Assembly: GCA_009778475.1 (NCBI GenBank)
Contig: WRJS01000002.1
Coordinates: 3,836 to 67,835, forward strand
Reading direction: 5' to 3'
DNA length: 64,000 bases
From: Kiritimatiellota bacterium
Lineage (GTDB): Bacteria; Verrucomicrobiota; Kiritimatiellia; RFP12; UBA1067
The stretch's first letter is position 1, and the number at the start of each line of letters is the position of its first letter. The position numbers and the translations under genes were made by a program. Of this stretch, positions 823-26,909 are shown one piece after another. The notes under the pieces were generated by a model that saw nothing but the letters and a program-made list of their open reading frames with translations, made no database searches and was not told where the DNA came from.

Positions 823-1134
823 TTATTTCGGTGTAGCAAGTTCTGCGCCGATCTCGACACATCGGGCGCAGGGGGTCTTGCCCATCGAGCGGATTTCCTT
901 GCAGAACTCCGACCCCGCCTGTTCTCTAAATGTCGCCTTAATCGCCGCATGGCGTTCCGCGGGCGACAGCAACAATGCCACATGGAGCGCACCGCAACGT
1001 CCTTCGGGCGACCTCCCGCCGCCGTTTGCTTTGAGTGGCTCGAGCAAGTCCTCCCGTCCACACCCTGCCGCAACGGCTTGCGCACAATTATGTGTCTTGG
1101 GGATTCGTGAATAGATCTCGACAGCTCTGTTCAT
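823..1134 (-). CDS. small C_GCAxxG_C_C-family (putative redox-active) protein
   Basis: 103 aa containing NCAQAVAAGCG and GRCGALHVALLL plus C-terminal Cys pairs, as recalled for the C_GCAxxG_C_C family. Its start overlaps the ogt stop by 4 nt (ATGA coupling). Confidence 0.5.
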   Translation of the reverse strand: MNRAVEIYSRIPKTHNCAQAVAAGCGREDLLEPLKANGGGRSPEGRCGALHVALLLSPAERHAAIKATFREQAGSEFCKEIRSMGKTPCARCVEIGAELATPK

Positions 1135-1676
1135 GTTCGCGTTCCTTTCAAATGAAAAAACTGTGGCATATCGGCGCCTTCGAGTTCGAGCAGTTTAATT
1201 TTTTTGTCAATGCCGCCAGCGTAGCCGGTCAGGCTGCCGTTAGAGCCGACGACGCGGTGGCAGGGGATGATGATGGAGATGGGGTTGTGGCCGACAGCGC
1301 CGCCCACGGCTCGGGCGGAGATGGCCGCTTTCTTCATCTTCTGTGCCATCTTCTTGGCGATGTCGCTGTAGGTGGTGGTTTTGCCGTAGGGGATTTCACG
1401 CAAGATGTTCCATACGCCCTGACGGAACGCGCCTCCGATCGGGGCTAACGGCAATTCCGGAATGGCGGGTTTCTTGCCCGCGAAATACCTGTCCAGCCAT
1501 TTTCTGGCAACGGCGAATATCGGCATATCATCCCTCTCTTCCATTGCCCCCGGGATAGTGTCGCCATGATATTTTTGCGGGTTCAGCCACAGGCCGACAA
1601 GGTTGTCGTCACTGTCACACGCCAGTGTCATGCCCCCTATGGGCGAGGTGTAGAGCGTTGAGTAGTACATTTTCAA
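1131..1676 (-). CDS. ogt: methylated-DNA--protein-cysteine methyltransferase (O6-alkylguanine-DNA alkyltransferase)
   Basis: IPCHRVV active-site motif and a typical MGMT C-terminal DNA-binding domain. The track start is TTG; the first ATG is 2 codons downstream (MYYSTLY...). Confidence 0.85.
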   Translation of the reverse strand: MKMYYSTLYTSPIGGMTLACDSDDNLVGLWLNPQKYHGDTIPGAMEERDDMPIFAVARKWLDRYFAGKKPAIPELPLAPIGGAFRQGVWNILREIPYGKTTTYSDIAKKMAQKMKKAAISARAVGGAVGHNPISIIIPCHRVVGSNGSLTGYAGGIDKKIKLLELEGADMPQFFHLKGTRT

Positions 1677-1845
1677 AACGGTTTTCCTTGCACATAAAAC
1701 ACGATATTATTTTTACACATTGCCGTCGGATATGTCAATGAGGCAAGTGATTTTTTTAACGGCAACCGCTAAACATCATTTTGCTTGCCCTTGATTCTTT
1801 TGAGGTGTTAAGATATTCTTTTTCAAGCTCTATTAGGAGAAAAAT

Positions 1846-2955
1846 ATGTTGGTCATATTTTACACCCCAAGTTTTCGTTCGGCGGCCGGTTTGGCTGTTC
1901 TGGCGATTTGCTATGCAACGGTTGCCTTTGGGGGTTGGGCCGCAAATGTCTTCGACCACTCGGAAGGTCGTTCTTTTTCCCGCTTCCCTGTGTCTATTTA
2001 TTATGAGCCGGGAAAAGGGGATTTTACGACATTCGGGGAGGCGGTTGAGGCATTGAAAGGCAATAACAACATACAGCGGCTGGGGGAAGTCACGTTGCAG
2101 CACTTCTTCGTGTATGATTCCGTGTTTCAGCAGGAGTTTTGCGCCGCGCTCGAAAAACTTGCGCCCCGTGAGTTTGCCGAAGCCAAACGTTCGGCGGGCA
2201 ATATGCACAACCCGAAAATGATCGCACTCCGTGGGTTCTTCGGGCAAGCCGTGTTGGCAACGCCGACAGTCCAGAACATCAATGCGAAACTTGCGCCGTT
2301 CGATCTGCGGGTGACGGAAGCGGATGCTGGCGAGAAAATCTATTTTGACCGCATCGAGGAGCAGTTGCATTTCCACTGTTATTTTCGCCTCACCATTGCA
2401 CGCATCAATGAAACGCCATCCGCACAGAATAAGGTTCCGGACGCTGAAAACCCCATCGTTGTTGCCGCGCGGCGCCAAGTCGGCAAGACGCTTGCGTATG
2501 ACTCCGGGTATGTCCGCCTGACGTATCCGATGGGGGACATCCCCATTGAGCGAGGGGTCTGCACGGATGTGGTCATCCGCGCCTTGCGCGATGCATTGAA
2601 GATGGATTTGCAGCAGTTGGTCCACGAGGACATGACCTCCTCCTTCTCAGCCTATCCCAACAATTGGGGGCTTAAGCAACCGGACAGGAATATCGACCAT
2701 CGCCGAGTGCCGAACCTCAAAAAATATTTCGAGCGCAAGGGCTTTTCGGTTGCGGTTTCAAAAAAGCCGGGGGACTACCTGCCCGGCGATCTTGTGACCT
2801 GCACTGTGGCGGGGAACCGACCGCACATCATGATTGTGAGCGACAAGAAAACGCCCAAAGGCGTTCCCCTTGTTATCCACAACATCGGCCGTGGCACGCA
2901 AGAAGAAGACCGTCTTTTCTCTTTTCCGCTTACAGGGCATTATCGCATTAAATGA
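1846..2955 (+). CDS. DUF1287-domain protein with an N-terminal extra domain
   Basis: The C-terminal half shows ERGVCTDVVIRALRD...VHEDM...YPNNWGL...PDRNIDHRRVPNL...PGDLV...VIHNIG, the remembered signature of the DUF1287 family. The N-terminus has a hydrophobic segment. An AT-rich promoter-like region lies upstream. Confidence 0.55.
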   Translation: MLVIFYTPSFRSAAGLAVLAICYATVAFGGWAANVFDHSEGRSFSRFPVSIYYEPGKGDFTTFGEAVEALKGNNNIQRLGEVTLQHFFVYDSVFQQEFCAALEKLAPREFAEAKRSAGNMHNPKMIALRGFFGQAVLATPTVQNINAKLAPFDLRVTEADAGEKIYFDRIEEQLHFHCYFRLTIARINETPSAQNKVPDAENPIVVAARRQVGKTLAYDSGYVRLTYPMGDIPIERGVCTDVVIRALRDALKMDLQQLVHEDMTSSFSAYPNNWGLKQPDRNIDHRRVPNLKKYFERKGFSVAVSKKPGDYLPGDLVTCTVAGNRPHIMIVSDKKTPKGVPLVIHNIGRGTQEEDRLFSFPLTGHYRIK

Positions 2956-2986
2956 AGCATTTCGACGCTCGCGAGTCCTCTGTTAC

Positions 2987-4102
2987 TCATTCCTCATTTG
3001 CAAACAGCAGCGTCCCGAAGCCCGGCTGGTCGCGGTCGTGACCTTCGGGTCGGGTTTTGCCGAGGACCTGCGCGGTGTAGGGCATCGGGAGGCCTTTGCG
3101 CCCGGCGAAATGGTTGTGGGCGATTTCAAAGACGGGCATGAAGCGGCCGCGCCCGGACTCCGAGATTTCCGCCCAGCGGCAATACTTCCCCGTGACGTCC
3201 GTCCAGCGGGCGAACGGGACGTCGTGGCCGAGGTTGTAACGCGCCACATACTCGTAGCCTTTCATCAGGCGGTTGTCGAGCGCGAAGTAGAGGTCGTCAC
3301 CCTGCTGCCACGCCAACTCGCACACCGTCGCCATGGCGCCGAGGCCCAACATGCAGTGCGGCTGGTCGCGCCCGCTCTCCTGCACCTGCCCGGTCTCGCC
3401 GCTGATGTAATGCGCGATGGTCCCGTTGTCGCGGGCATGGAGGTAGAAGTCGCGGGCCTTGGCGTACATCGCCCGGTCGTCCAGGTGGATGGCCGCGGCC
3501 ATGTAGGCCTTGGTGACGACGGGGCCCCAGTTGCCGTTGGTGTACGGCTCACGCGCGTAGAAGCGCTCCATCACGGGGATGAAAATTGTCTTGAACATGC
3601 GGGCGGCGGCGGCGAGTTGCGCTGCGTCGGCACCGGGCCAAGTGTGCTTCAGCGCCTCCAGCGCATAGACTATCTTGAACCCCTCCAGTCCAGCCAGCAG
3701 GGGGGCATCGTTGGTGTCGGGAATCTCGCGCAGGGTGTCGGCATACGCGGCCAGGATGGCGAGCGACCTCTGCGCATGCGCCTCGTCGCCGGAGAGGATC
3801 CACATCAGGGCGTTCTGATAGGCCGCGCTGAAATCGGCCTCCATCTTGCCCTTGGTGTGACGGAACTCCCCGTCGCGCGAGATGGCCGCGAACGGGCCCT
3901 CCATCACATAATCAGACTGCGAGCACTTGTGCCCCGCGAGCAGGCGGTAAGAGCCGTAGGCCGGCTCCGCCTTGCCCGCCACCGACCGGCGCATCCTGTC
4001 CATGCCCTCGCGCGTGTGCAGCACACCGGGATGGGCGAACCCCTGCGCGAGCGCGGGAACGGCCGCAAGGCAGGACAGGAGGGCGATGGCAGAACGTTTC
4101 AT
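2987..4102 (-). CDS. secreted polysaccharide lyase-like protein (alginate-lyase-family-like; assignment tentative)
   Basis: Sec signal peptide MKRSAIALLSCLAAVPALA at the internal ATG (track ORF extends to 4168). An NGNWG motif resembles the NNHSYW motif of AlgL-type lyases. The overlapping + strand ORF is an Ala/Arg/Gly-rich shadow. Confidence 0.4.
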   Translation of the reverse strand: MKRSAIALLSCLAAVPALAQGFAHPGVLHTREGMDRMRRSVAGKAEPAYGSYRLLAGHKCSQSDYVMEGPFAAISRDGEFRHTKGKMEADFSAAYQNALMWILSGDEAHAQRSLAILAAYADTLREIPDTNDAPLLAGLEGFKIVYALEALKHTWPGADAAQLAAAARMFKTIFIPVMERFYAREPYTNGNWGPVVTKAYMAAAIHLDDRAMYAKARDFYLHARDNGTIAHYISGETGQVQESGRDQPHCMLGLGAMATVCELAWQQGDDLYFALDNRLMKGYEYVARYNLGHDVPFARWTDVTGKYCRWAEISESGRGRFMPVFEIAHNHFAGRKGLPMPYTAQVLGKTRPEGHDRDQPGFGTLLFANEE

Positions 4103-4124
4103 GGCAAACGATGTCCGATGGCAT

Positions 4125-4454
4125 TCATTTTGGGTAGATGAGTTTGTCCAGATACTGGATGAGCGCATCGTCCTTAATCAGATAGATGAGTGTCCTGTCT
4201 CTCGCCGTCCAGTCAGGACAGTATGAAATGGCTAATTTCGCGCCACCGATGCCGGCAACGCGAAAAGGGGTGTAATCATCCATGTTCTGCATGATGTGCC
4301 GTTTGGACACTTTCTGTGTCTCTTCATACTCGAAGCCTGTCAGGATTGTCACCTTGACGTTCCCAAAATCCCCACCCGCATAAAAATCCTCGTGGGCAGA
4401 GACAGTCCTAGACGCCAAGACAAAAACCAGCGCCAACAGATGCCTGTGTTTCAT
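4125..4454 (-). CDS. hypothetical small secreted protein (low-GC islet)
   Basis: 109 aa with an N-terminal signal peptide (MKHRHLLALVFVLASRTVSA). AT-rich codon usage unlike the flanking sequence. A 4-nt start/stop overlap with the next gene. Confidence 0.45.
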   Translation of the reverse strand: MKHRHLLALVFVLASRTVSAHEDFYAGGDFGNVKVTILTGFEYEETQKVSKRHIMQNMDDYTPFRVAGIGGAKLAISYCPDWTARDRTLIYLIKDDALIQYLDKLIYPK

Positions 4455-4753
4455 AACGTTCTTTCAACCTCTTTGGCGATTTCCAGCAGTTTTTTTCTAA
4501 TTACCTCTTCCCTCATGCAGGAATCGTCGGGTTCATATAAATCAAAATTATCGACATAATTCAAAAATGCCTCGCAAACACTAGGGGTGTCGTTTATGTT
4601 CAGAAATATCCATGTGTCCAATCCATCGAATCCGACCAAATCCTCTAGATCATATCCCGAAGGCTGTTCCTTGCCTTGGTCGATTTCGGAAACCTTGAAA
4701 TATTTTTTCAGGAGTTTAAGGGTTTCCCTGTCCCGTTTGGTCTTCTGAATCAT
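4451..4753 (-). CDS. hypothetical acidic protein (low-GC islet)
   Basis: 100-aa Asp/Glu-rich ORF, translationally coupled to 4125..4454 and immediately downstream of the HNH gene. Confidence 0.4.
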   Translation of the reverse strand: MIQKTKRDRETLKLLKKYFKVSEIDQGKEQPSGYDLEDLVGFDGLDTWIFLNINDTPSVCEAFLNYVDNFDLYEPDDSCMREEVIRKKLLEIAKEVERTL

Positions 4754-4781
4754 GTAACATACTCGCTTTCCATGATGTTTT

Positions 4782-5585
4782 TCATTTTACAAAGATGTTC
4801 TCGCGATGCCACGACAAGAACATCTGTGATGGTGGCTGTCCGTGATCAGGCATGAAAAGACATTCACCTTCGAATGCCCCGAAGTTCTGTTCAAGTAATT
4901 TTTGCTCAGAAAGCAAACTACTTAACTTGCCAGAGAGGCGAAGCCGTAAACCCTCGTCAAAAGTAACCAACCCAAGGTCGAAAGCCGCATCATGTAACCG
5001 AGAGAGGCAAATCCCGTTGCAGACATCAAGCCGATGTTCGGGATGTGTCGCCCAAGGTAATATGTGCGAAGCGATTAAAAATTCACGTACAGGAATCCGA
5101 GAAATCGCACATTGCTCCCCGTAATTATTCAGGACAACCGAACGAAAATAATCCTGCCCGCGCCGTTGCTTGATGTTCGTAACCGTCTCAGTAATGGAGG
5201 GCGGCGCAAACGTTCTTGGTGTCTTGCGAATACCCTCACGTGCCGAAACCTCGACCGTCTCATTCGCTGTCGCTTCAAAAACAGAATGTAGCAATTCCTC
5301 ACTTGTAGCAACGTTTTCTGTCGGGGAGGAGGTAAACTCATTCCACATTTCTGCGTCAAGTTTGCTTGCGCCAGGCAGTCCTGCGATACCGCGCAGTTTT
5401 AATACCGGGTCGAATGACGCAAGGTTTGAAAGCTTCATTGCTACACTAGATGGTGTTCGCCTCAATACCTGTGCAACCGCTTTCACAACCTTGTTTCGGT
5501 GGTCAAATTGCCCAAATTCAAGCTTGTGATAGATGTTTAACAAGATGAGCAGCTCGTCCCTTGTCCATTTCTTTCCAGCAGACAT
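4782..5585 (-). CDS. HNH endonuclease (HNH_2-type, restriction-endonuclease-like)
   Basis: GEQCAISRIPVREFLIASHILPWATHPEHRLDVCNGICLSRLHDAAFDLGLVTFDE is the typical PF13391-like HNH nuclease core. AT-rich. Confidence 0.7.
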   Translation of the reverse strand: MSAGKKWTRDELLILLNIYHKLEFGQFDHRNKVVKAVAQVLRRTPSSVAMKLSNLASFDPVLKLRGIAGLPGASKLDAEMWNEFTSSPTENVATSEELLHSVFEATANETVEVSAREGIRKTPRTFAPPSITETVTNIKQRRGQDYFRSVVLNNYGEQCAISRIPVREFLIASHILPWATHPEHRLDVCNGICLSRLHDAAFDLGLVTFDEGLRLRLSGKLSSLLSEQKLLEQNFGAFEGECLFMPDHGQPPSQMFLSWHRENIFVK

Positions 5586-6169
5586 CAGACCTCCGCTTCC
5601 TTCGTTTCAGTGAAGCGAGCTAATGGGCTGTTCCCTATATCCCATGTCTCTCCCACCTCAAACATATGCAATGCACGTGTTTCAATTTGCGCCAGCCATT
5701 GTTTGGCTTTCTCTGTCAAGTTGTGCGAAACCGTGAACACACACGCTTCATCAAGCGGAATCTTCATGTCTTCGCAAAATTCTTTCTGACTGTAGCAATG
5801 AAACGTGGCAGTTCCCCTTGTAGCATCCCCTGAAATATGTCCCCAGAAAAAGGATGTGTCTCCATTGTCCAAGTCACCGCCAATCTCCTCTGAGACTTTC
5901 ATCCACCGAAAGTATTGCCGATGGTCTGCATCCAAACAACCACGTTTCAGAAATGCGACCAGTTTACGGTCTGCATTTCCTTTCGGATGCTTCTCACACA
6001 AGCGCATAGCAGTTGGATGGTAGGTACGTTCCCATTTTTCACGACTGGTTTTCCACCATGCAATCGTTATGTGCGGACAGGCGCACCATTCAGCCCACAA
6101 CGAAAATTGAATCACCCGAGCAATGTCATGGGTAATCTCTTGATTGATGATTTTTTCGGTTACATTCAT
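5585..6169 (-). CDS. hypothetical protein (low-GC islet), translationally coupled to the HNH gene
   Basis: 194-aa ORF whose stop overlaps the HNH start by 1 nt. Trp/Cys-containing, no recognised motif. Confidence 0.45.
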   Translation of the reverse strand: MNVTEKIINQEITHDIARVIQFSLWAEWCACPHITIAWWKTSREKWERTYHPTAMRLCEKHPKGNADRKLVAFLKRGCLDADHRQYFRWMKVSEEIGGDLDNGDTSFFWGHISGDATRGTATFHCYSQKEFCEDMKIPLDEACVFTVSHNLTEKAKQWLAQIETRALHMFEVGETWDIGNSPLARFTETKEAEV

Positions 6170-6250
6170 ACTATTTAGAAATGGTGATGCCCCTGAAAGG
6201 GTAAGAAAATAAGTTCGTTTCCATTCTGCTTACACCTTGCAATGGCATTA

Positions 6251-6417
6251 CTAAACCTCGATGTCCCAGACGGTAGGGGTTTCGCCGCGTGCGCGGAGGA
6301 TGGGGGCGGCGATTTTCTGCAACGCCACCACAATCCGCACTTTCTCGGGCATAGGGAGTTTGCGCAACGCCTCGCGGTGAAGCGGTTTGCCGAACGGGAA
6401 CGGCGTCACGGCTCGGT

Positions 6418-6442
<25 letters not shown>
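6251..6442 (-). CDS. hypothetical small protein (or frameshifted C-terminus of the upstream gene)
   Basis: 63-aa ORF overlapping the 3' end of 6418..6921 by 25 nt in another frame. Confidence 0.25.
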
Positions 6443-8360
<1,918 letters not shown>

Positions 8361-8585
8361 TCAGAAAGTGATTATCATACCTGTTTTGCCCTGCTACCGC
8401 AAACAAAACCACAGAGGTCTCTCTATTTTTTTATCCACAGATGACAGCGTGTGTTGCCGCGAGATAAGGGTAACACCTCGAGCCTCTATGGAATGCGGCG
8501 GGTTCCCCTTTGACCTTTGTGCCTTTGTGTGAGATTATTCATCCACGTTTGGTCTCCGCGCGAAAACACCTTGGGCATGAAGGGC

Positions 8586-11500
8586 TTACTCGAAAAGAAT
8601 CTGCCCCCAGTTCTTGGGCTCGAGCTTGAGCTCGAACACGTCGTCGGCGACGATGCCGGTGGCTTGGTTGCTCCAGTGGCTGCGGAGGATGGTCTTGGCG
8701 CCTTCGGGGTCGCCGAAGGTCGCGCCGATGTCGCCGGTGTAGGTGGTGCCGGGCGCGGGGGTGAAGCCGATGTCTTTGAGGGGTATCGCGGCCTGGACGA
8801 TGTAGTCGCGGCCGGGGGTGGCCTTCACCTCGATCTTGGCGTTGTCGAGGGTCTTGACGCATTGCATCTCGTAGCCGTCGCGGATGACGCCGGAGTAGAA
8901 TTTGCGGGGGCGTTTCTCGTCGGACACGGGTTTGAACAGCACGGCGGCGGGGGTGCCTTTGAGGTTGCCGATGGAGATGCGGAGGTCGCCGAGGACGGGG
9001 GCGGTGCGCTTCCTGTCCGCGCTGGCGTCGGTGCCGAGCTGGAAGTCGACGGTGTCGCCGCGGGAGTACATCTCGGCGGCCTCGGAGGCGCCGTTGGTGG
9101 CCCAGGGGGTGGCGTCGGTGACTTTCCAGCCGAGGTAGAGCATGGCGTCGTCGTAGCCGATGGCGAACTCGACCCTGTCGGTGGGCTTCTTCTCGAATTT
9201 CATGAGCTCGCGCACGTTGAAGTCGCGGCGGATGTCGCCGGTGAAGTTGGTGACGGAGTGTTTCTTGGCGGTGGCGAGGCGCGCGCCGACGCCGGCCTGC
9301 GCGAGCTTGTCGCGGATCTCCATCACGCGGGGGAGGTCTTGGGCGGTGAGGGTGAGGGTGCCGCCTTGGAGCGCCCTCACGGTGTCGAGGCCGGTGACGC
9401 GGTGGTTGACGTAGGCGGTCTTGCCGGCCTGGAGGTAGAGGTGGCCGTCGTCGGCGATCGTGACGGAGCCGCCGAAGTCCTCCGCGCCCATGCCGGGGGG
9501 GATGTTGTCGGTGACGGCGCCGGGGACGGCGGCCTCGGGGAAACTAATCTTGGCGGCGTCGGACTCGAAAAGCTGGGTGAGGTAGAAGCCGCCCTCGGTG
9601 AGGATGTGCCACATCCCCTTGTCGGTGGCGATGACGAAGAAGTTGCCGATGGGCGCGGGGAGTTTGCCGACGCCGACGATGTCGTAGGCGGCGTTGATCA
9701 TGCCGGGCTGGGCGGGGGGGGCGTTGTGGCCGCCGTGCACGCCGACGTAGTTGTTGGGGTACGTCCATTTCAGTTTGCCGCTGGCGATGTCGTAGCAGGG
9801 GAAGTCGCTGTGGTTGACGCCGTAGTGGCCGTTGTAGAGGACGAGCGAGCCGTCGGCCGACCCGATGCCCCGTTGCGCCCCCATGCCGCCGCGCCGCTCG
9901 ATGTCCTCGGGCGCGGGCAGGCGGGTGGCCTTGGTGAGGTCGTAGCGCGGTGCGCCGCATTTCGTCCAGCCCGTGGGCGCGATGCGGTAGAGGCCGCCGT
10001 AGAACGTGAGGCCGGGGGTCATGGGCATATACCAGCCCGACACCCACCCGCCGAGTTCCACCATTTGCTCCGTGACCTCGCCGGGCTGCTCGATGCCGTC
10101 GCCGTTGGCGTCGCTCCAGATGCGGATGCCGCTGATTTTCCCGTTGGGATGGCCGTTGCCCCCGATCTTGTCCGCGAGCGCGTCGAGGCGCGCGCGGAGG
10201 CGGTAGTCGCCGGGGGCGAGGCGCTCGTAGATGTACACGGGCTGGTAGCCGTGGTAGTCGCCGCTGACCGCGACGTAGAGGCGGCCGTTGTCGCCGCGGG
10301 AGAAGCGGCAGGTGCCGCATTCGCCGCGGTGGAACACGCCGACGCATACGGCGCGACCCGTCGCCTTGTCGAGCTTCCATTCGCAGCCGCTGCCGGCCAT
10401 GACGAGCGGGTCGGCGGGCGAGATCGCGCCGCCGGGCGCGCCGTAGTGCGTGGGGCCGAAGAACTCGCGGATGAACTTGCCCGTCGCGGCGTCCCAGCAC
10501 GAGAAGCGCTTGGGGTGGTCGTCCTGCTCGGCGACCCAGAGCGTGCCGTGCTTGTCGAGGCGCACGGCCGCGATGAACCGCATCCCGTCTTTCTTCCATG
10601 GCCCGAACAGCGGGCGGCCGCCCTTCTTGCCGATGGCGCGTTTGGCCTTGCCGTCCTTGTTGAACACCTTGACCTGATTGTCGGGGTCGCGCACGCCGAC
10701 ATAGAAGTTGCCTTCCGCGTCCACGGTGAGGCACGTCGCGTTGATGATCCCCTCGATGCGCACGGCGGTCGTGCCGTCGGGCTTGACCTCGAGGACGCTC
10801 GCCTTGAACTCTTGGAACGTCGTCACGCCCTTCTTCGTCTCGAGGCGCATCTCGTCGTTCGCGAGCGCGTACAGCGTGCCGTCCGGCGCGACGGTCAGGT
10901 TGATGATGTCGCGCACGGGAATGCTCTTGGCCTGCTTGCCGGTCTTTGCGCTGAGCACGCGCACGGTGTTGCTCTGCGCGAGGTAGAGGTTGCCGTCGTA
11001 GGCGTCCAGCCCGACAAGCCCCTTGCCGACCGCCACCGTCGCGAGGCTCGAGCCCTCGAAGTTGATGTAGTCGCTCTTCGCCGTCGAGATGCGGTAGATG
11101 ACCCCGTCGTCCTGCCAGTCATAGACGTAGGCCATGCCGTTGTCGAGCGCGACGTGGGCCGCCCCGCCGAAGCCGCCGCGCTTGTGGCGCCACTTCACGT
11201 TACCCTCGAAGTCCGCGCACACGAGCGCCTTGCCCGCCTCCGAACAGTTCCAGCCCAAGTACATGCTCTCCCCGTCCGTCGCGAGTGCGCTGGGGTTGCC
11301 CATGTCGCCGCCCCAGTTGCCGCCCGGCGAGTCGTAGGGTGTCCTGCCCGCGTTGTCCGCCCACCCCACGAGGCGCAGGCCGATGCCCGTGTGGAAGATG
11401 GCCTCCCATGTGTACGCCCCCTCCGGCACGGGTTCGCCCGGCTTCAGGTGGCTCATGTTCGTCAGCCCGTCCCACGGCACGGTGTGCTTGCCCTTCGCAT

Positions 11501-26262: not shown

Positions 26263-26909
26263 CATCCGCCAAACCCCGGCAGCCGCTGCTCAACATCCTG
26301 CACGGGGCGGAAGGTGCGGCGGTGTTCGGGGCAGGGGCCGTGCTTGTGGAGGGCGGCGATATGCTCGCTCACGCCGTAGCCTTTGTTCGCGTCGAAGCCG
26401 TAGTGCGGGTATTGCGCGTGGAGGCCGCGCATGAGGCGGTCGCGGGAGACTTTGGCGATGACGCTGGCGGCGGCGATGAGGAAACTCTTGGAGTCGCCGC
26501 GCACAATCGGCGTGGAGGGACAAGGCAGGCCCTTCACGGCAAGGCCGTCAACCAGCGCATGGTCGGCCTTCACCGGCAACGCCGCGATCGCGCGGCGCAT
26601 GGCGGTGTGGGTGGCGACGAGGATGTTGAGGCGGTCGATCTCCTGCGCGGTGGCGGCGCCGACGCCCCATGCCACGCCGTCGGCCTGCGTCAGTTGCGCG
26701 AAGAACTGCTCGCGCTGGGCGGGCGTGAGTTGCTTGGAGTCCGTGAGCCCCGCGAGCGGGCCGGCGTACAATTCTTCGGCCCGTTCGGGGGGCATGGAGA
26801 CCGCGCCCGCGACAACGGGACCTGCGAGGCAACCACGCCCAGCTTCGTCCACCCCGGCGAGGATGATGGCGGGCGACGATGCCCAGAGTCTTCGTTCGTA
26901 GCTCAGCAT
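26205..26909 (-). CDS. rnhB: ribonuclease HII
   Basis: ILAGVDEAGRGCLAGPVVAGAV N-terminal catalytic motif and DSK...RNase HII core. The last ~15 codons run into repeat element B2. Confidence 0.85.
   Translation of the reverse strand: MLSYERRLWASSPAIILAGVDEAGRGCLAGPVVAGAVSMPPERAEELYAGPLAGLTDSKQLTPAQREQFFAQLTQADGVAWGVGAATAQEIDRLNILVATHTAMRRAIAALPVKADHALVDGLAVKGLPCPSTPIVRGDSKSFLIAAASVIAKVSRDRLMRGLHAQYPHYGFDANKGYGVSEHIAALHKHGPCPEHRRTFRPVQDVEQRLPGFGGWDGGDAGDCFFRLKSTDGD

Follow-up and report, generated by a model that had tools for sequence, protein, structure and literature searches.

A low-GC islet downstream of purB in a Kiritimatiellota genome: a probable accessory cassette with a restriction-type HNH_2 nuclease and a coupled orphan gene

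Overview

The window analysed here is a whole stretch of 64 kb of DNA from a Kiritimatiellota MAG. Positions 4103 to 6250 of it are best read, with moderate confidence, as a horizontally acquired AT-rich accessory cassette, the core of which is a coupled pair of genes encoding a 194-aa orphan protein and an HNH_2 protein, most likely a solitary restriction nuclease of type IV-like character. Horizontal acquisition and a defence-type nuclease had both been proposed in the initial annotation of this DNA; the former is supported by the foreign composition, by the lack of the islet in the close relative L089 and by the presence of the 194/HNH core in three unrelated contexts, and the latter by the restriction-type family of the nuclease. 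We regard it as a rather unremarkable defence islet, in which one partner gene is left without explanation.

In the scenario that we propose, the cassette would occupy a hotspot prone to recombination, with purB on one side and an alginate-lyase-family gene on the other, and the 194-aa and 267-aa HNH_2 genes, translationally coupled, would constitute its functional core. The nuclease is predicted to bind DNA by its N-terminal domain, which is helical and HTH-like, and to cut incoming DNA at its C-terminal beta-beta-alpha-metal site (H174/N190/H198), structurally similar to that of VcaM4I and TagI. Because neither the islet nor the remainder of the 64-kb window contains a methyltransferase, and because most members of the family likewise have none next to them, the protein is most likely a solitary type IV-like enzyme; the recurrent linkage to Vsr would suggest a possible tie to cytosine-methylation biology. 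The 194-aa protein would be co-expressed with the nuclease, which it probably modulates or directs; the acidic 100-aa gene is a lineage-specific add-on, and the 109-aa ORF is what decay has left of unrelated cargo. No mobility genes belong to the cassette, which appears to be moved or replaced through homologous recombination in the core genes on either side.

The cassette adds an example from an uncultured Kiritimatiellota to a large HNH_2 restriction-type family, already represented in PADLOC and common in the PVC superphylum. It also brings to light a very rare orphan partner gene beside an HNH nuclease and shows that, in related strains, alternative AT-rich cargo occupies a small hotspot of the chromosome after purB. 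Current understanding is not overturned, and the practical value lies in a candidate for enzyme characterisation.

Composition and Gene Layout of the Islet

Measured in 200-nt windows, GC falls from 0.66-0.69 at 3601-4100 to 0.41-0.52 across 4101-6300, then climbs to 0.56-0.61 on the right of the islet and to 0.62-0.71 past 7000. Compared with the flanks, the islet ranges from 0.41 to 0.52 in GC against 0.64-0.70, with a GC3 of ~0.48 against 0.83-0.87. This profile bears out the low-GC islet described earlier over 4103-6250; the drop itself stands, and only the figure of 40-45% given for it was slightly low, since the islet mean is ~0.47.

The four genes, delimited as open reading frames, are all on the minus strand, as had been annotated. 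They are, from upstream to downstream, the 194-aa orphan gene (5585-6169; GC 0.47, GC3 0.48), the gene of the 267-aa HNH_2 restriction-type endonuclease, also recognised by Pfam (4782-5585; 0.48 and 0.48), the gene of an acidic 100-aa protein (4451-4753; 0.41 and 0.48) and a 109-aa ORF with a signal-peptide-like N-terminus (4125-4454; 0.49 and 0.62). The overlaps of 1 nt between the 194-aa and HNH genes and of 4 nt between the 100-aa and 109-aa genes were found as described, but the HNH and 100-aa genes are separated by a gap of 28 nt. Against the islet-bearing related locus L003, dN/dS lies between 0.09 and 0.23 across all four genes (0.09 for HNH, 0.16 for the 194-aa and 0.12 for the 100-aa gene), which points to purifying selection and would argue for all four being functional.

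On the downstream side, a 22-nt spacer (4103-4124) that holds the left-hand copies of the 8-mers CGATGTCC and ATGGCATT runs from the 109-aa stop to the start of an alginate-lyase-family gene with a signal peptide, the conserved flank on this side (2987-4102, minus strand; Pfam Alginate_lyase, 6.6e-16; GC 0.66, GC3 0.87). Upstream of the 194-aa gene lies an 81-nt AT-rich spacer (6170-6250, GC 0.38) holding the right-hand ATGGCATT, followed by a second accessory module with genes for a 167-aa (or 157-aa) protein and a basic 63-aa protein (6251-6921, minus strand) and by purB, which encodes adenylosuccinate lyase and forms the conserved flank of the hotspot on the upstream side (6918-8336, minus strand; Lyase_1/ASL_C; GC 0.64, GC3 0.83). 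The 81-nt spacer contains no sigma-70-like promoter and no Rfam match, and scans of the islet for promoters, terminators and Rfam families did not rise over background; the lack of a promoter counts against the explanation that we prefer.

The HNH Nuclease and Its Family

The identification of an HNH_2-type endonuclease was confirmed by two profile collections. Pfam HNH_2 (PF13391) matches residues 159-210 of the 267-aa protein with 36.1 bits, against a gathering cut-off of 21. The PADLOC comparison that had been recommended returned the model 'HNH' (PDLC04132) over the full length (2.1e-76, residues 1-266 on profile positions 23-273 of 286), the second-best model being PDLC03546, 'HNH, Type II restriction enzyme', at 1e-33. 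H174, N190 and H198 (with D199) are invariant in an alignment of 30 sequences including the window protein, and the motif ASHI(L/K)PW aligns with VcaM4I. Residues 1-105 are helical and homeodomain/Myb-like (HTH-like); a beta-hairpin, a disordered linker (126-140) and the C-terminal nuclease domain follow, the last resembling the type IV enzymes VcaM4I and TagI. The N-terminal domain does not look like a known modification reader (EVE or SRA, and probably not wH), which counts against the explanation that we prefer. More than 1283 homologues were found at ~55% identity, named 'putative restriction endonuclease' by their sources, and by its sequence the protein falls in a restriction-type HNH_2 nuclease family that is widespread and centred on the PVC superphylum. 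A phosphorothioate-DNA-dependent endonuclease with its sulfur-binding domain was considered and rejected: the score for NCBIfam NF045808 (phosphorothioate-dependent, SprMcrA-like) is 57.6 bits, below the curated cut-off of 180, and only the C-terminal nuclease part aligns.

Relatives of the nuclease are often linked to Vsr and sometimes lie near m5C methyltransferases and defence genes. Among 88 HNH loci, with neighbours read in 80 genomes, 34 have Vsr and about 78 have no methyltransferase within 6 kb. Other neighbours are MvaI/BcnI-like genes, a 1028-aa PLD-like/helicase-type gene (by motif reading) and, by eye, a NERD-like gene and PIN/AbrB-like pairs; the verrucomicrobial loci have defence-island-like surroundings with Vsr and restriction genes. 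At locus L178, an m5C methyltransferase gene overlaps an HNH gene at its start, the encoded HNH protein sharing 61% identity with that of the window, and at L007 Vsr begins 6 nt past the HNH gene. The Neisseria gonorrhoeae homologue is located between pheS and pheT and adjoins Vsr and a truncated m5C methyltransferase; its identity with R.NmeDI was ruled out, as it has 249 aa against the 351 aa of that enzyme (PMC2095814). No m5C-methyltransferase-like sequence was detected in the 64-kb window by tblastn or among the islet ORFs by Pfam and PADLOC. The recurrent Vsr linkage hints at cytosine-methylation biology, and the family could be type II (a methyltransferase being adjacent in L178), type IV or other.

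The Orphan Partner and the Downstream ORFs

The initial annotation took the acidic 100-aa protein for a partner or inhibitor of the nuclease. Judged by gene co-occurrence, the conserved partner is instead the upstream orphan 194-aa gene. It is found directly upstream of an HNH homologue in every contig carrying it (L003-L008 and, at 33% identity, L047), the two genes overlapping by 1 or 4 nt or lying a short gap apart. In L047 the identity is 52-54% for HNH and 33% for the partner, and the two genes have co-diverged; a neighbour-joining tree of the HNH proteins is star-like and does not resolve the monophyly of the 194-linked ones. The 194-aa protein is rich in W and C, with a pI of 6.0, carries the invariant motif D-x-G-D-T-x-x-F-W-G-H and has no match in Pfam, NCBIfam, PADLOC or PDB sequences. 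Its relatives are rare: only 5 proteins were found among 5.8 billion, and phmmer against 1.84 billion representatives gave only 2 genuine ones (P0004 and P0126), two further matches being artefacts of repetitive proteins. IMG/VR holds no relative, and a profile HMM of the family run against all ORFs of the HNH loci uncovered no hidden homologues. Most HNH family members, in Verrucomicrobiota, occur without this protein. Its equivalence with the conserved divergent neighbour of verrucomicrobial HNH genes was rejected, the hhalign probability of 0.1% indicating that the two families are unrelated. The AlphaFold model is unusable (pLDDT 48) and, because neither homology nor a reliable fold is available, the role of the protein is conjecture.

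The 100-aa protein (pI 4.6) has no family match in Pfam, NCBIfam, PHROGs or PADLOC, and its homologues, 68% identical, are in L003 and L004 only. The gene is not present at L007 and L047, the 194-HNH loci of the other contexts that have downstream sequence, nor at ~80 other HNH loci. It is a lineage-specific accessory of the cassette, limited to the purB-site lineage (the window, L003 and L004), and its proposed role as nuclease partner is not sustained, as it is not co-inherited with HNH outside these three. The 109-aa secreted protein, for its part, does not stand as a separate gene. Its residues 1-49 and 44-109 align with residues 1-49 and 256-321 of a 322-aa protein of L003, and the ORF is an in-frame internal deletion (~210 codons lost) of the 322-aa family, a remnant of unrelated cargo; searches with the 109-aa protein in Pfam, NCBIfam, PHROGs, PADLOC and PDB sequences gave nothing above noise. 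The 322-aa family has ~97 members, some in Flavobacterium, where an island with one of them also has an integrase, an AHH toxin and a transposase. It occurs alone as well, standing after purB in L171.

The purB-Alginate-Lyase Hotspot

In the window and other Kiritimatiellia, the 194-HNH pair is found in three contexts: it follows purB in the window and L003, a pyruvate-dehydrogenase E1-beta/transketolase-like gene in L006-L008 and gyrA in L047. Its GC is low in all three and never normal, in agreement with the earlier view of the islet. L089 has no islet, and a low-GC Sel1-repeat extension of purB stands in its place; DNA identity between L089 and the islet-bearing L003 is 95.4% for the lyase gene and only 85% for purB, which indicates recombinational replacement. 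The homology of the lyase gene to L089 begins at position 4075 of the window, inside the signal-peptide codons, and that of purB to L003, L089 and L171 stops near 6982-6987, inside its 3' end. In L003 the islet abuts purB directly, the purB stop overlapping the 194-aa start, with neither the 81-nt spacer nor the 167/63-aa pair. This pair is not found in L089 or L171 either and is no part of the HNH cassette; it has an intermediate GC (0.56-0.61), its 167-aa gene overlaps the purB stop, and a weak DUF2204 match (0.059) was all that the family searches gave, nothing in them rising above noise. Compared across related strains, the interval between purB and the lyase gene thus reads as a hotspot holding alternative AT-rich cargo.

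A clean empty site was sought among 80 metagenome loci related to the lyase gene, and the only candidate was L089 with its alternative cargo, the others not being syntenic. Between the window and L003 the islet is 76.6% identical at the nucleotide level, no different from its flanks (76-82%). This counts against the preferred explanation, as the islet may be old and vertically inherited here and not a recent arrival, which would leave its low GC unexplained. Integrase and transposase genes are missing in and beside the islet, and the only tRNA of the window is at 26316. The suggested comparison with phages and plasmids revealed no origin (no blastn match in 50,697 phage and 72,556 plasmid records), and in IMG/VR the HNH protein has two weak partial matches only.

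Alternative Explanations

The solitary nuclease has to be weighed against other ways of reading the same genes. It is possible, with a low probability, that the 194-aa and HNH proteins form an undescribed two-gene defence system, in which the W/C-rich partner would be a new sensor or a self-protection factor replacing the methyltransferase or Vsr that adjoins other family members, and in which the low GC of the pair would come from selection (for example avoidance of the nuclease's own GC-rich target, or xenogeneic silencing) and not from recent arrival. We hold to be unlikely a nuclease-immunity or addiction module, a selfish toxin-antitoxin-like unit with HNH as a toxic non-specific DNase and the 194-aa or the 100-aa protein as inhibitor. 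The small acidic protein encoded just downstream, as in colicin DNase immunity genes, the tight coupling of the 194-aa and HNH genes, the window devoid of methyltransferase and the purifying selection on all genes of an islet kept in two diverged lineages speak for it. However, full-length HNH homologues lacking both candidate inhibitors number more than 1000, so that the nuclease does not by its nature require one; moreover, L007 and L047 have no 100-aa gene, the HNH protein carries no translocation or secretion domains, and PADLOC and Pfam give no toxin-antitoxin signature. The methyltransferase and Vsr genes adjoining HNH in L178, L007 and N. gonorrhoeae, the Vsr at 34 loci and the type II label of the second PADLOC model would fit a decayed type II m5C restriction-modification/Vsr cassette, with HNH as R subunit, methyltransferase and Vsr lost or elsewhere in the genome, and the 194-aa protein as unrelated cargo. 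This is quite improbable: an active type II endonuclease without its methyltransferase would kill, yet the HNH gene is under strong constraint (dN/dS 0.09) with all invariant residues kept, most loci have no methyltransferase nearby, and the 194-aa gene is consistently HNH-linked in three contexts.

Two further explanations concern how the islet came to its site. A free-standing homing-type HNH enzyme, which would cut alleles devoid of the cassette close to the 3' ends of conserved genes so that the cassette spreads by recombinational repair with co-conversion of the flanks, would suit a cassette that is always directly after a conserved housekeeping gene (purB, E1-beta, gyrA), has no mobility genes and shows mosaic flank identities (95% vs 85%). 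It is very improbable, since the family members of Verrucomicrobiota lie in defence-island-like settings and not at recurrent housekeeping junctions, the HNH_2 members characterised to date are restriction enzymes (PMC5714182, PMC7897488), and no target-site evidence was found. The initial annotation had suggested an insertion-site duplication or rearrangement, and a discrete mobile element with a target-site duplication marked by ATGGCATT (at 4118 and 6242-6249, its only two copies in the window) and CGATGTCC (at 4109 and 6259) is scarcely credible. Both 8-mers do lie within ~30 nt of each GC boundary, and two non-overlapping 8-mers are common to only 28 of 6181 pairs (0.45%) of 50-nt windows 2140 nt apart, a coincidence out of the ordinary, though not an extreme one for something noticed after the fact. 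Their order, however, is swapped between the islet ends. CGATGTCC is a common genomic word, with 24 copies in the window against 4.0 expected (six-fold over-represented), and the two copies of ATGGCATT, against 1.0 expected, were reached in 25 of 100 shuffles. The left 22-nt spacer has its homologue in the sequence around the stop codon of the 322-family genes, as seen in L003 and L171, neither of which has the exact 8-mer; the left ATGGCATT descends from this region and so is not a repeat of the right copy, the two lying in non-homologous sequence. The L003 islet has a different right junction and no CGATGTCC at all, an empty site of the form GGACATCG-N-AATGCCAT-N was found at none of the 80 related loci, and integrase, transposase and tRNA are all missing. 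The breakpoints in L089 and L003 are at ~4075 and ~6982, and the 8-mers bound none of the presence/absence polymorphisms.

Comparison with Known Systems

No biochemically characterised member of the PADLOC 'HNH' family PDLC04132 was found. The gonococcal 249-aa member gives 6.6e-91 with this model, and its alignment spans 98% of the window protein at 36% identity, the helical N-terminus and HNH_2 layout being the same; unlike the gonococcal gene, that of the window adjoins neither Vsr nor methyltransferase and is preceded by the orphan 194-aa gene, known from a few Kiritimatiellia only. The modification-dependent type IV enzymes VcaM4I (EVE-HNH, PDB 6YEX) and TagI (SRA-HNH, PDB 6GHS) have an HNH domain of the same fold, but their EVE or SRA (PUA-superfamily) reader is not in the window protein. 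The wH-HNH fusion endonucleases are 6mA-dependent type IV enzymes of 224-283 aa with a winged-helix methyl-adenine sensor N-terminal to HNH (PMC11037411); they share with the window protein a similar size, a small HTH-type domain followed by HNH and the usual lack of a nearby methyltransferase. AlwI, BbrI and HphI are type IIS HNH_2 restriction enzymes of His-Me finger group 6 (PMC5714182); they share PF13391 with the window protein, the relative of which in L178 is operonic with an m5C methyltransferase, whereas the window has no methyltransferase and its protein is much smaller, with another recognition domain. The colicin E-type DNases resemble the islet in the order of an HNH nuclease and a small acidic protein, but the acidic gene of the window is not conserved with the nuclease, receptor and translocation domains are missing, and the conserved partner, of 194 aa, is encoded upstream.

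Composition and gene layout

The fall in GC content described in the initial annotation is genuine and abrupt. Measured over 200 nt at a time, GC amounts to 0.66-0.69 at 3601-4100, 0.41-0.52 at 4101-6300, 0.56-0.61 from there to about 6900 and 0.62-0.71 past 7000, the mean of the entire window being 0.65. ORF calling within this trough gives four minus-strand genes, for proteins of 109 aa (4125-4454), 100 aa (4451-4753), 267 aa (the HNH protein, 4782-5585) and 194 aa (5585-6169), flanked by an alginate-lyase-family gene (2987-4102), which begins at its signal peptide, and by purB (6918-8336). Of the coupled arrangement first proposed, the four genes and the overlaps of 1 nt (194/HNH) and 4 nt (100/109) stand, but the HNH and 100-aa genes do not overlap, a gap of 28 nt lying between them. 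The islet is foreign, with a GC3 of 0.48-0.62 for its four genes versus 0.83-0.87 in the flanking purB and lyase genes. Composition is also uneven elsewhere in the initial 9 kb of the window, with more low-GC patches at 401-600, 1001-3000 and 8301-8600: GC is 0.39-0.55 around 1000-3000, including a DUF1287 gene at 1846-2955 (GC 0.54), and 0.48 just upstream of purB.

The purB-lyase site

Three related loci (L003, L004 and L005) present at the same site the order purB-194-HNH-100-322 aa-lyase, with protein identities of 70-81%; in L003, the islet lies directly against purB, whose stop overlaps the 194-aa start. The islet is polymorphic: it is wholly missing from L089, a locus of the JGI sample that also yielded L004, and in L089 the purB frame extends into a low-GC (0.41) Sel1-repeat stretch followed by the lyase gene. 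In L171, all that comes after purB as cargo is a 325-aa homologue of the 322-aa gene; beyond it lie an acetyltransferase and a mutY-like gene (HhH-GPD/NUDIX). These comparisons show the site to be a hotspot holding alternative cargo. Homology between the window and L089 stops at about 6982, inside purB, and restarts at 4075, in the signal-peptide codons of the lyase gene. Because L003 and L089 share 95.4% DNA identity in the lyase gene (from 37 nt inside) and only 85% in purB, the cargo between these two genes appears to have been swapped by recombination, with breakpoints within the core genes. No integrase, transposase or nearby tRNA was found at the islet, and a search suggested at the outset retrieved no phage or plasmid record matching its DNA. 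The stopless purB continuation of L089 (691-2568), with about 165 aa of Sel1/TPR-like repeats exactly at the window's islet position, may represent a seeming gene fusion, or else an artefact of assembly or annotation.

Next to purB, the minus-strand stretch 6251-6921 encodes an acidic 167-aa protein (157 aa by the gene caller), which starts 4 nt inside the purB stop, and a basic 63-aa protein (pI 10.1), whose gene overlaps the former by 25 nt. This pair has an intermediate GC (0.56-0.61) and is missing from L089, L171 and L003, the last also being without the 81-nt spacer. Its sole match is a weak one to a DUF2204 nucleotidyltransferase (E 0.059), and the pair gives the impression of an independent small accessory module in this hotspot, possibly toxin-antitoxin-like.

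Two 8-mers shared by the islet ends, CGATGTCC and ATGGCATT, had been proposed as an insertion-site duplication. Both are present where they had been placed, in an order reversed between the two ends. In the window, CGATGTCC has 24 copies versus 4.0 expected from dinucleotide-preserving shuffles, an excess that probably stems from a preference for one codon pair (GAC-ATC-G) in a GC-rich genome, and ATGGCATT has two versus 1.0 expected, two copies being reached in 25 of 100 shuffles. Sharing two 8-mers, as 0.45% of comparable window pairs do, is uncommon, yet weak evidence when found post hoc. The left ATGGCATT sits in sequence that goes back to the region around the stop of the 322-family gene (its counterparts being AAAAATGAATAATG in L171 and AAAAGGAATAATGC in L003) and the right copy comes after the stop of the 63-aa gene; in L003, AATGCCAT is confined to codons 2-4 (N-A-I) of the 194-aa gene, and CGATGTCC is lacking. 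Since the 8-mers coincide with none of the junctions seen in L003, L089 and L171, and the copies of ATGGCATT differ in descent, the duplication is unsupported; a reading of the islet as a discrete element that duplicated its target site is hardly credible. The reverse complement of CGATGTCC is GGACATCG.

The HNH nuclease and its family

The 267-aa protein clears the Pfam HNH_2 threshold, matches the PADLOC models PDLC04132 'HNH' along its entire length (2.1e-76) and PDLC03546 'HNH, Type II restriction enzyme' (1e-33), and scores well under the cut-off of the phosphorothioate-dependent family. The PADLOC comparison suggested initially thus agrees with a defence-type nuclease of a restriction-type family. 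This family, which PADLOC and the His-Me finger classification (PMC5714182) already include, counts over 1283 proteins, each about 265 aa long and about 55% identical, mostly from Verrucomicrobiota, Lentisphaerota and Kiritimatiellota, with invariant residues over the full length, including H174, N190 and H198.

In a neighbourhood survey of 88 HNH loci (80 genome loci, L009-L088, and L001-L008), a Vsr gene was found within 4 kb in 34 and an m5C methyltransferase in only about 10, while MvaI/BcnI-like genes (Pfam) and, judged by sequence reading, a 1028-aa PLD-like plus helicase gene, a NERD-like gene and PIN/AbrB-like pairs recur. The 64-kb window holds no methyltransferase-like sequence. Matches and neighbourhoods together lead us to assign the family to restriction-type defence nucleases, apparently tied in some way to cytosine-methylation biology and usually without a methyltransferase of their own. 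A conserved divergent gene is present in 54 of the 88 loci, about 80 nt upstream of HNH and without Pfam or PADLOC match (e.g., L010 5564-5935 and L085 4421-5281); in the genome loci Vsr often lies just past it, and some (e.g., L085 5405-5938) carry, immediately upstream, an additional HNH_2 paralogue of shorter length.

A full-length homologue from N. gonorrhoeae (36% identity, PADLOC 6.6e-91) is encoded between pheS and pheT, a Neisseria site known to hold restriction systems (PMC7973814), and adjoins Vsr and a truncated m5C methyltransferase. The order (NZ_CP119142.1 369359-380096) is pheS, Vsr, m5C methyltransferase cut off after motif I, 113-aa ORF, intact 249-aa HNH homologue and pheT. 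The homologue is not R.NmeDI, which has 351 aa (PMC2095814). PLSDB labels this 2.17-Mb record a plasmid; it is evidently a chromosome.

The 194-aa partner and the nature of the cassette

The sole unusual element of the cassette is its very rare 194-aa partner. NCBI attributes the proteins of the islet to a Kiritimatiellaeota MAG, and exact copies are confined to two metagenome contigs, both from this organism. For the 194-aa protein, 5.8 billion proteins yield five clusters of relatives, and among 1.84 billion representatives two are genuine (P0004 and P0126). Every relative directly precedes an HNH-gene homologue, and homologues are missing from all other HNH loci. The pair lies downstream of a pyruvate-dehydrogenase E1-beta/transketolase-like gene in L006, L007 (where a Vsr gene comes after HNH) and L008, and L047 has the order gyrA-205 aa-HNH, with identities of 33% for the partner and 52-54% for the HNH protein. 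In all contexts, the GC of the pair is 0.36-0.53 versus 0.55-0.69 in the flanks. The protein evolves under purifying selection (dN/dS 0.16), its family keeps 45 invariant positions, among them D-x-G-D-T-x-x-F-W-G-H, and it has no family, PDB relative or reliable fold. The conserved divergent neighbour of the verrucomicrobial HNH genes was compared with it and is unrelated.

We favour, with moderate confidence, an accessory cassette gained by horizontal transfer, at the core of which a solitary type IV-like restriction nuclease is co-translated with an orphan partner. The HTH-like domain of the HNH protein would bind DNA, which the HNH site of the same protein would then cut. The data show the family to which the nuclease belongs, the foreign character of the islet and its polymorphism; we infer both the substrate specificity of the nuclease and the role of the partner. 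That the two genes constitute a new defence system, with the 194-aa protein as a new sensor or self-protection protein, is unlikely but deserves consideration. A nuclease/immunity addiction pair is unlikely too, weakened by the more than 1000 HNH homologues that occur without the partner. Decay of an m5C restriction-modification/Vsr cassette is slightly less likely than such a pair, and speaking against it is the strongly purifying selection on a nuclease without methyltransferase; a homing-type HNH is highly improbable.

Age and cargo of the islet

Between the window and L003, DNA identity is 76.6% in the islet, 76.0% in the lyase gene and 81.8% in purB, and dS in the islet is at least 1. Islet GC3 is 0.43-0.48 in both lineages (window 4103-6250, L003 539-3222) versus 0.76-0.87 in host genes, with no sign of amelioration of the islet genes in either. 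The islet is possibly old in the lineage and unexpectedly unameliorated, or one AT-rich pool possibly supplied it to the hotspot twice.

The acidic 100-aa protein (pI 4.6, dN/dS 0.12) is found only in the purB-site lineage. The 109-aa ORF is a remnant of the 322-aa signal-peptide family: relative to the L003 protein, about 210 codons have been lost in frame from its interior (junction ...EETQKV|SKRHIMQ...). As the 322-aa family stands alone after purB in L171, it is a separate cargo. Its approximately 97 members include Flavobacterium, whose island fits a Bacteroidota-like AT-rich donor pool: in one Flavobacterium sp. locus (L172), a full-length member (6001-6981) neighbours a tyrosine integrase, an N6_Mtase/SLFN_AlbA_2 gene, an AHH toxin with Imm11 and a DDE transposase.
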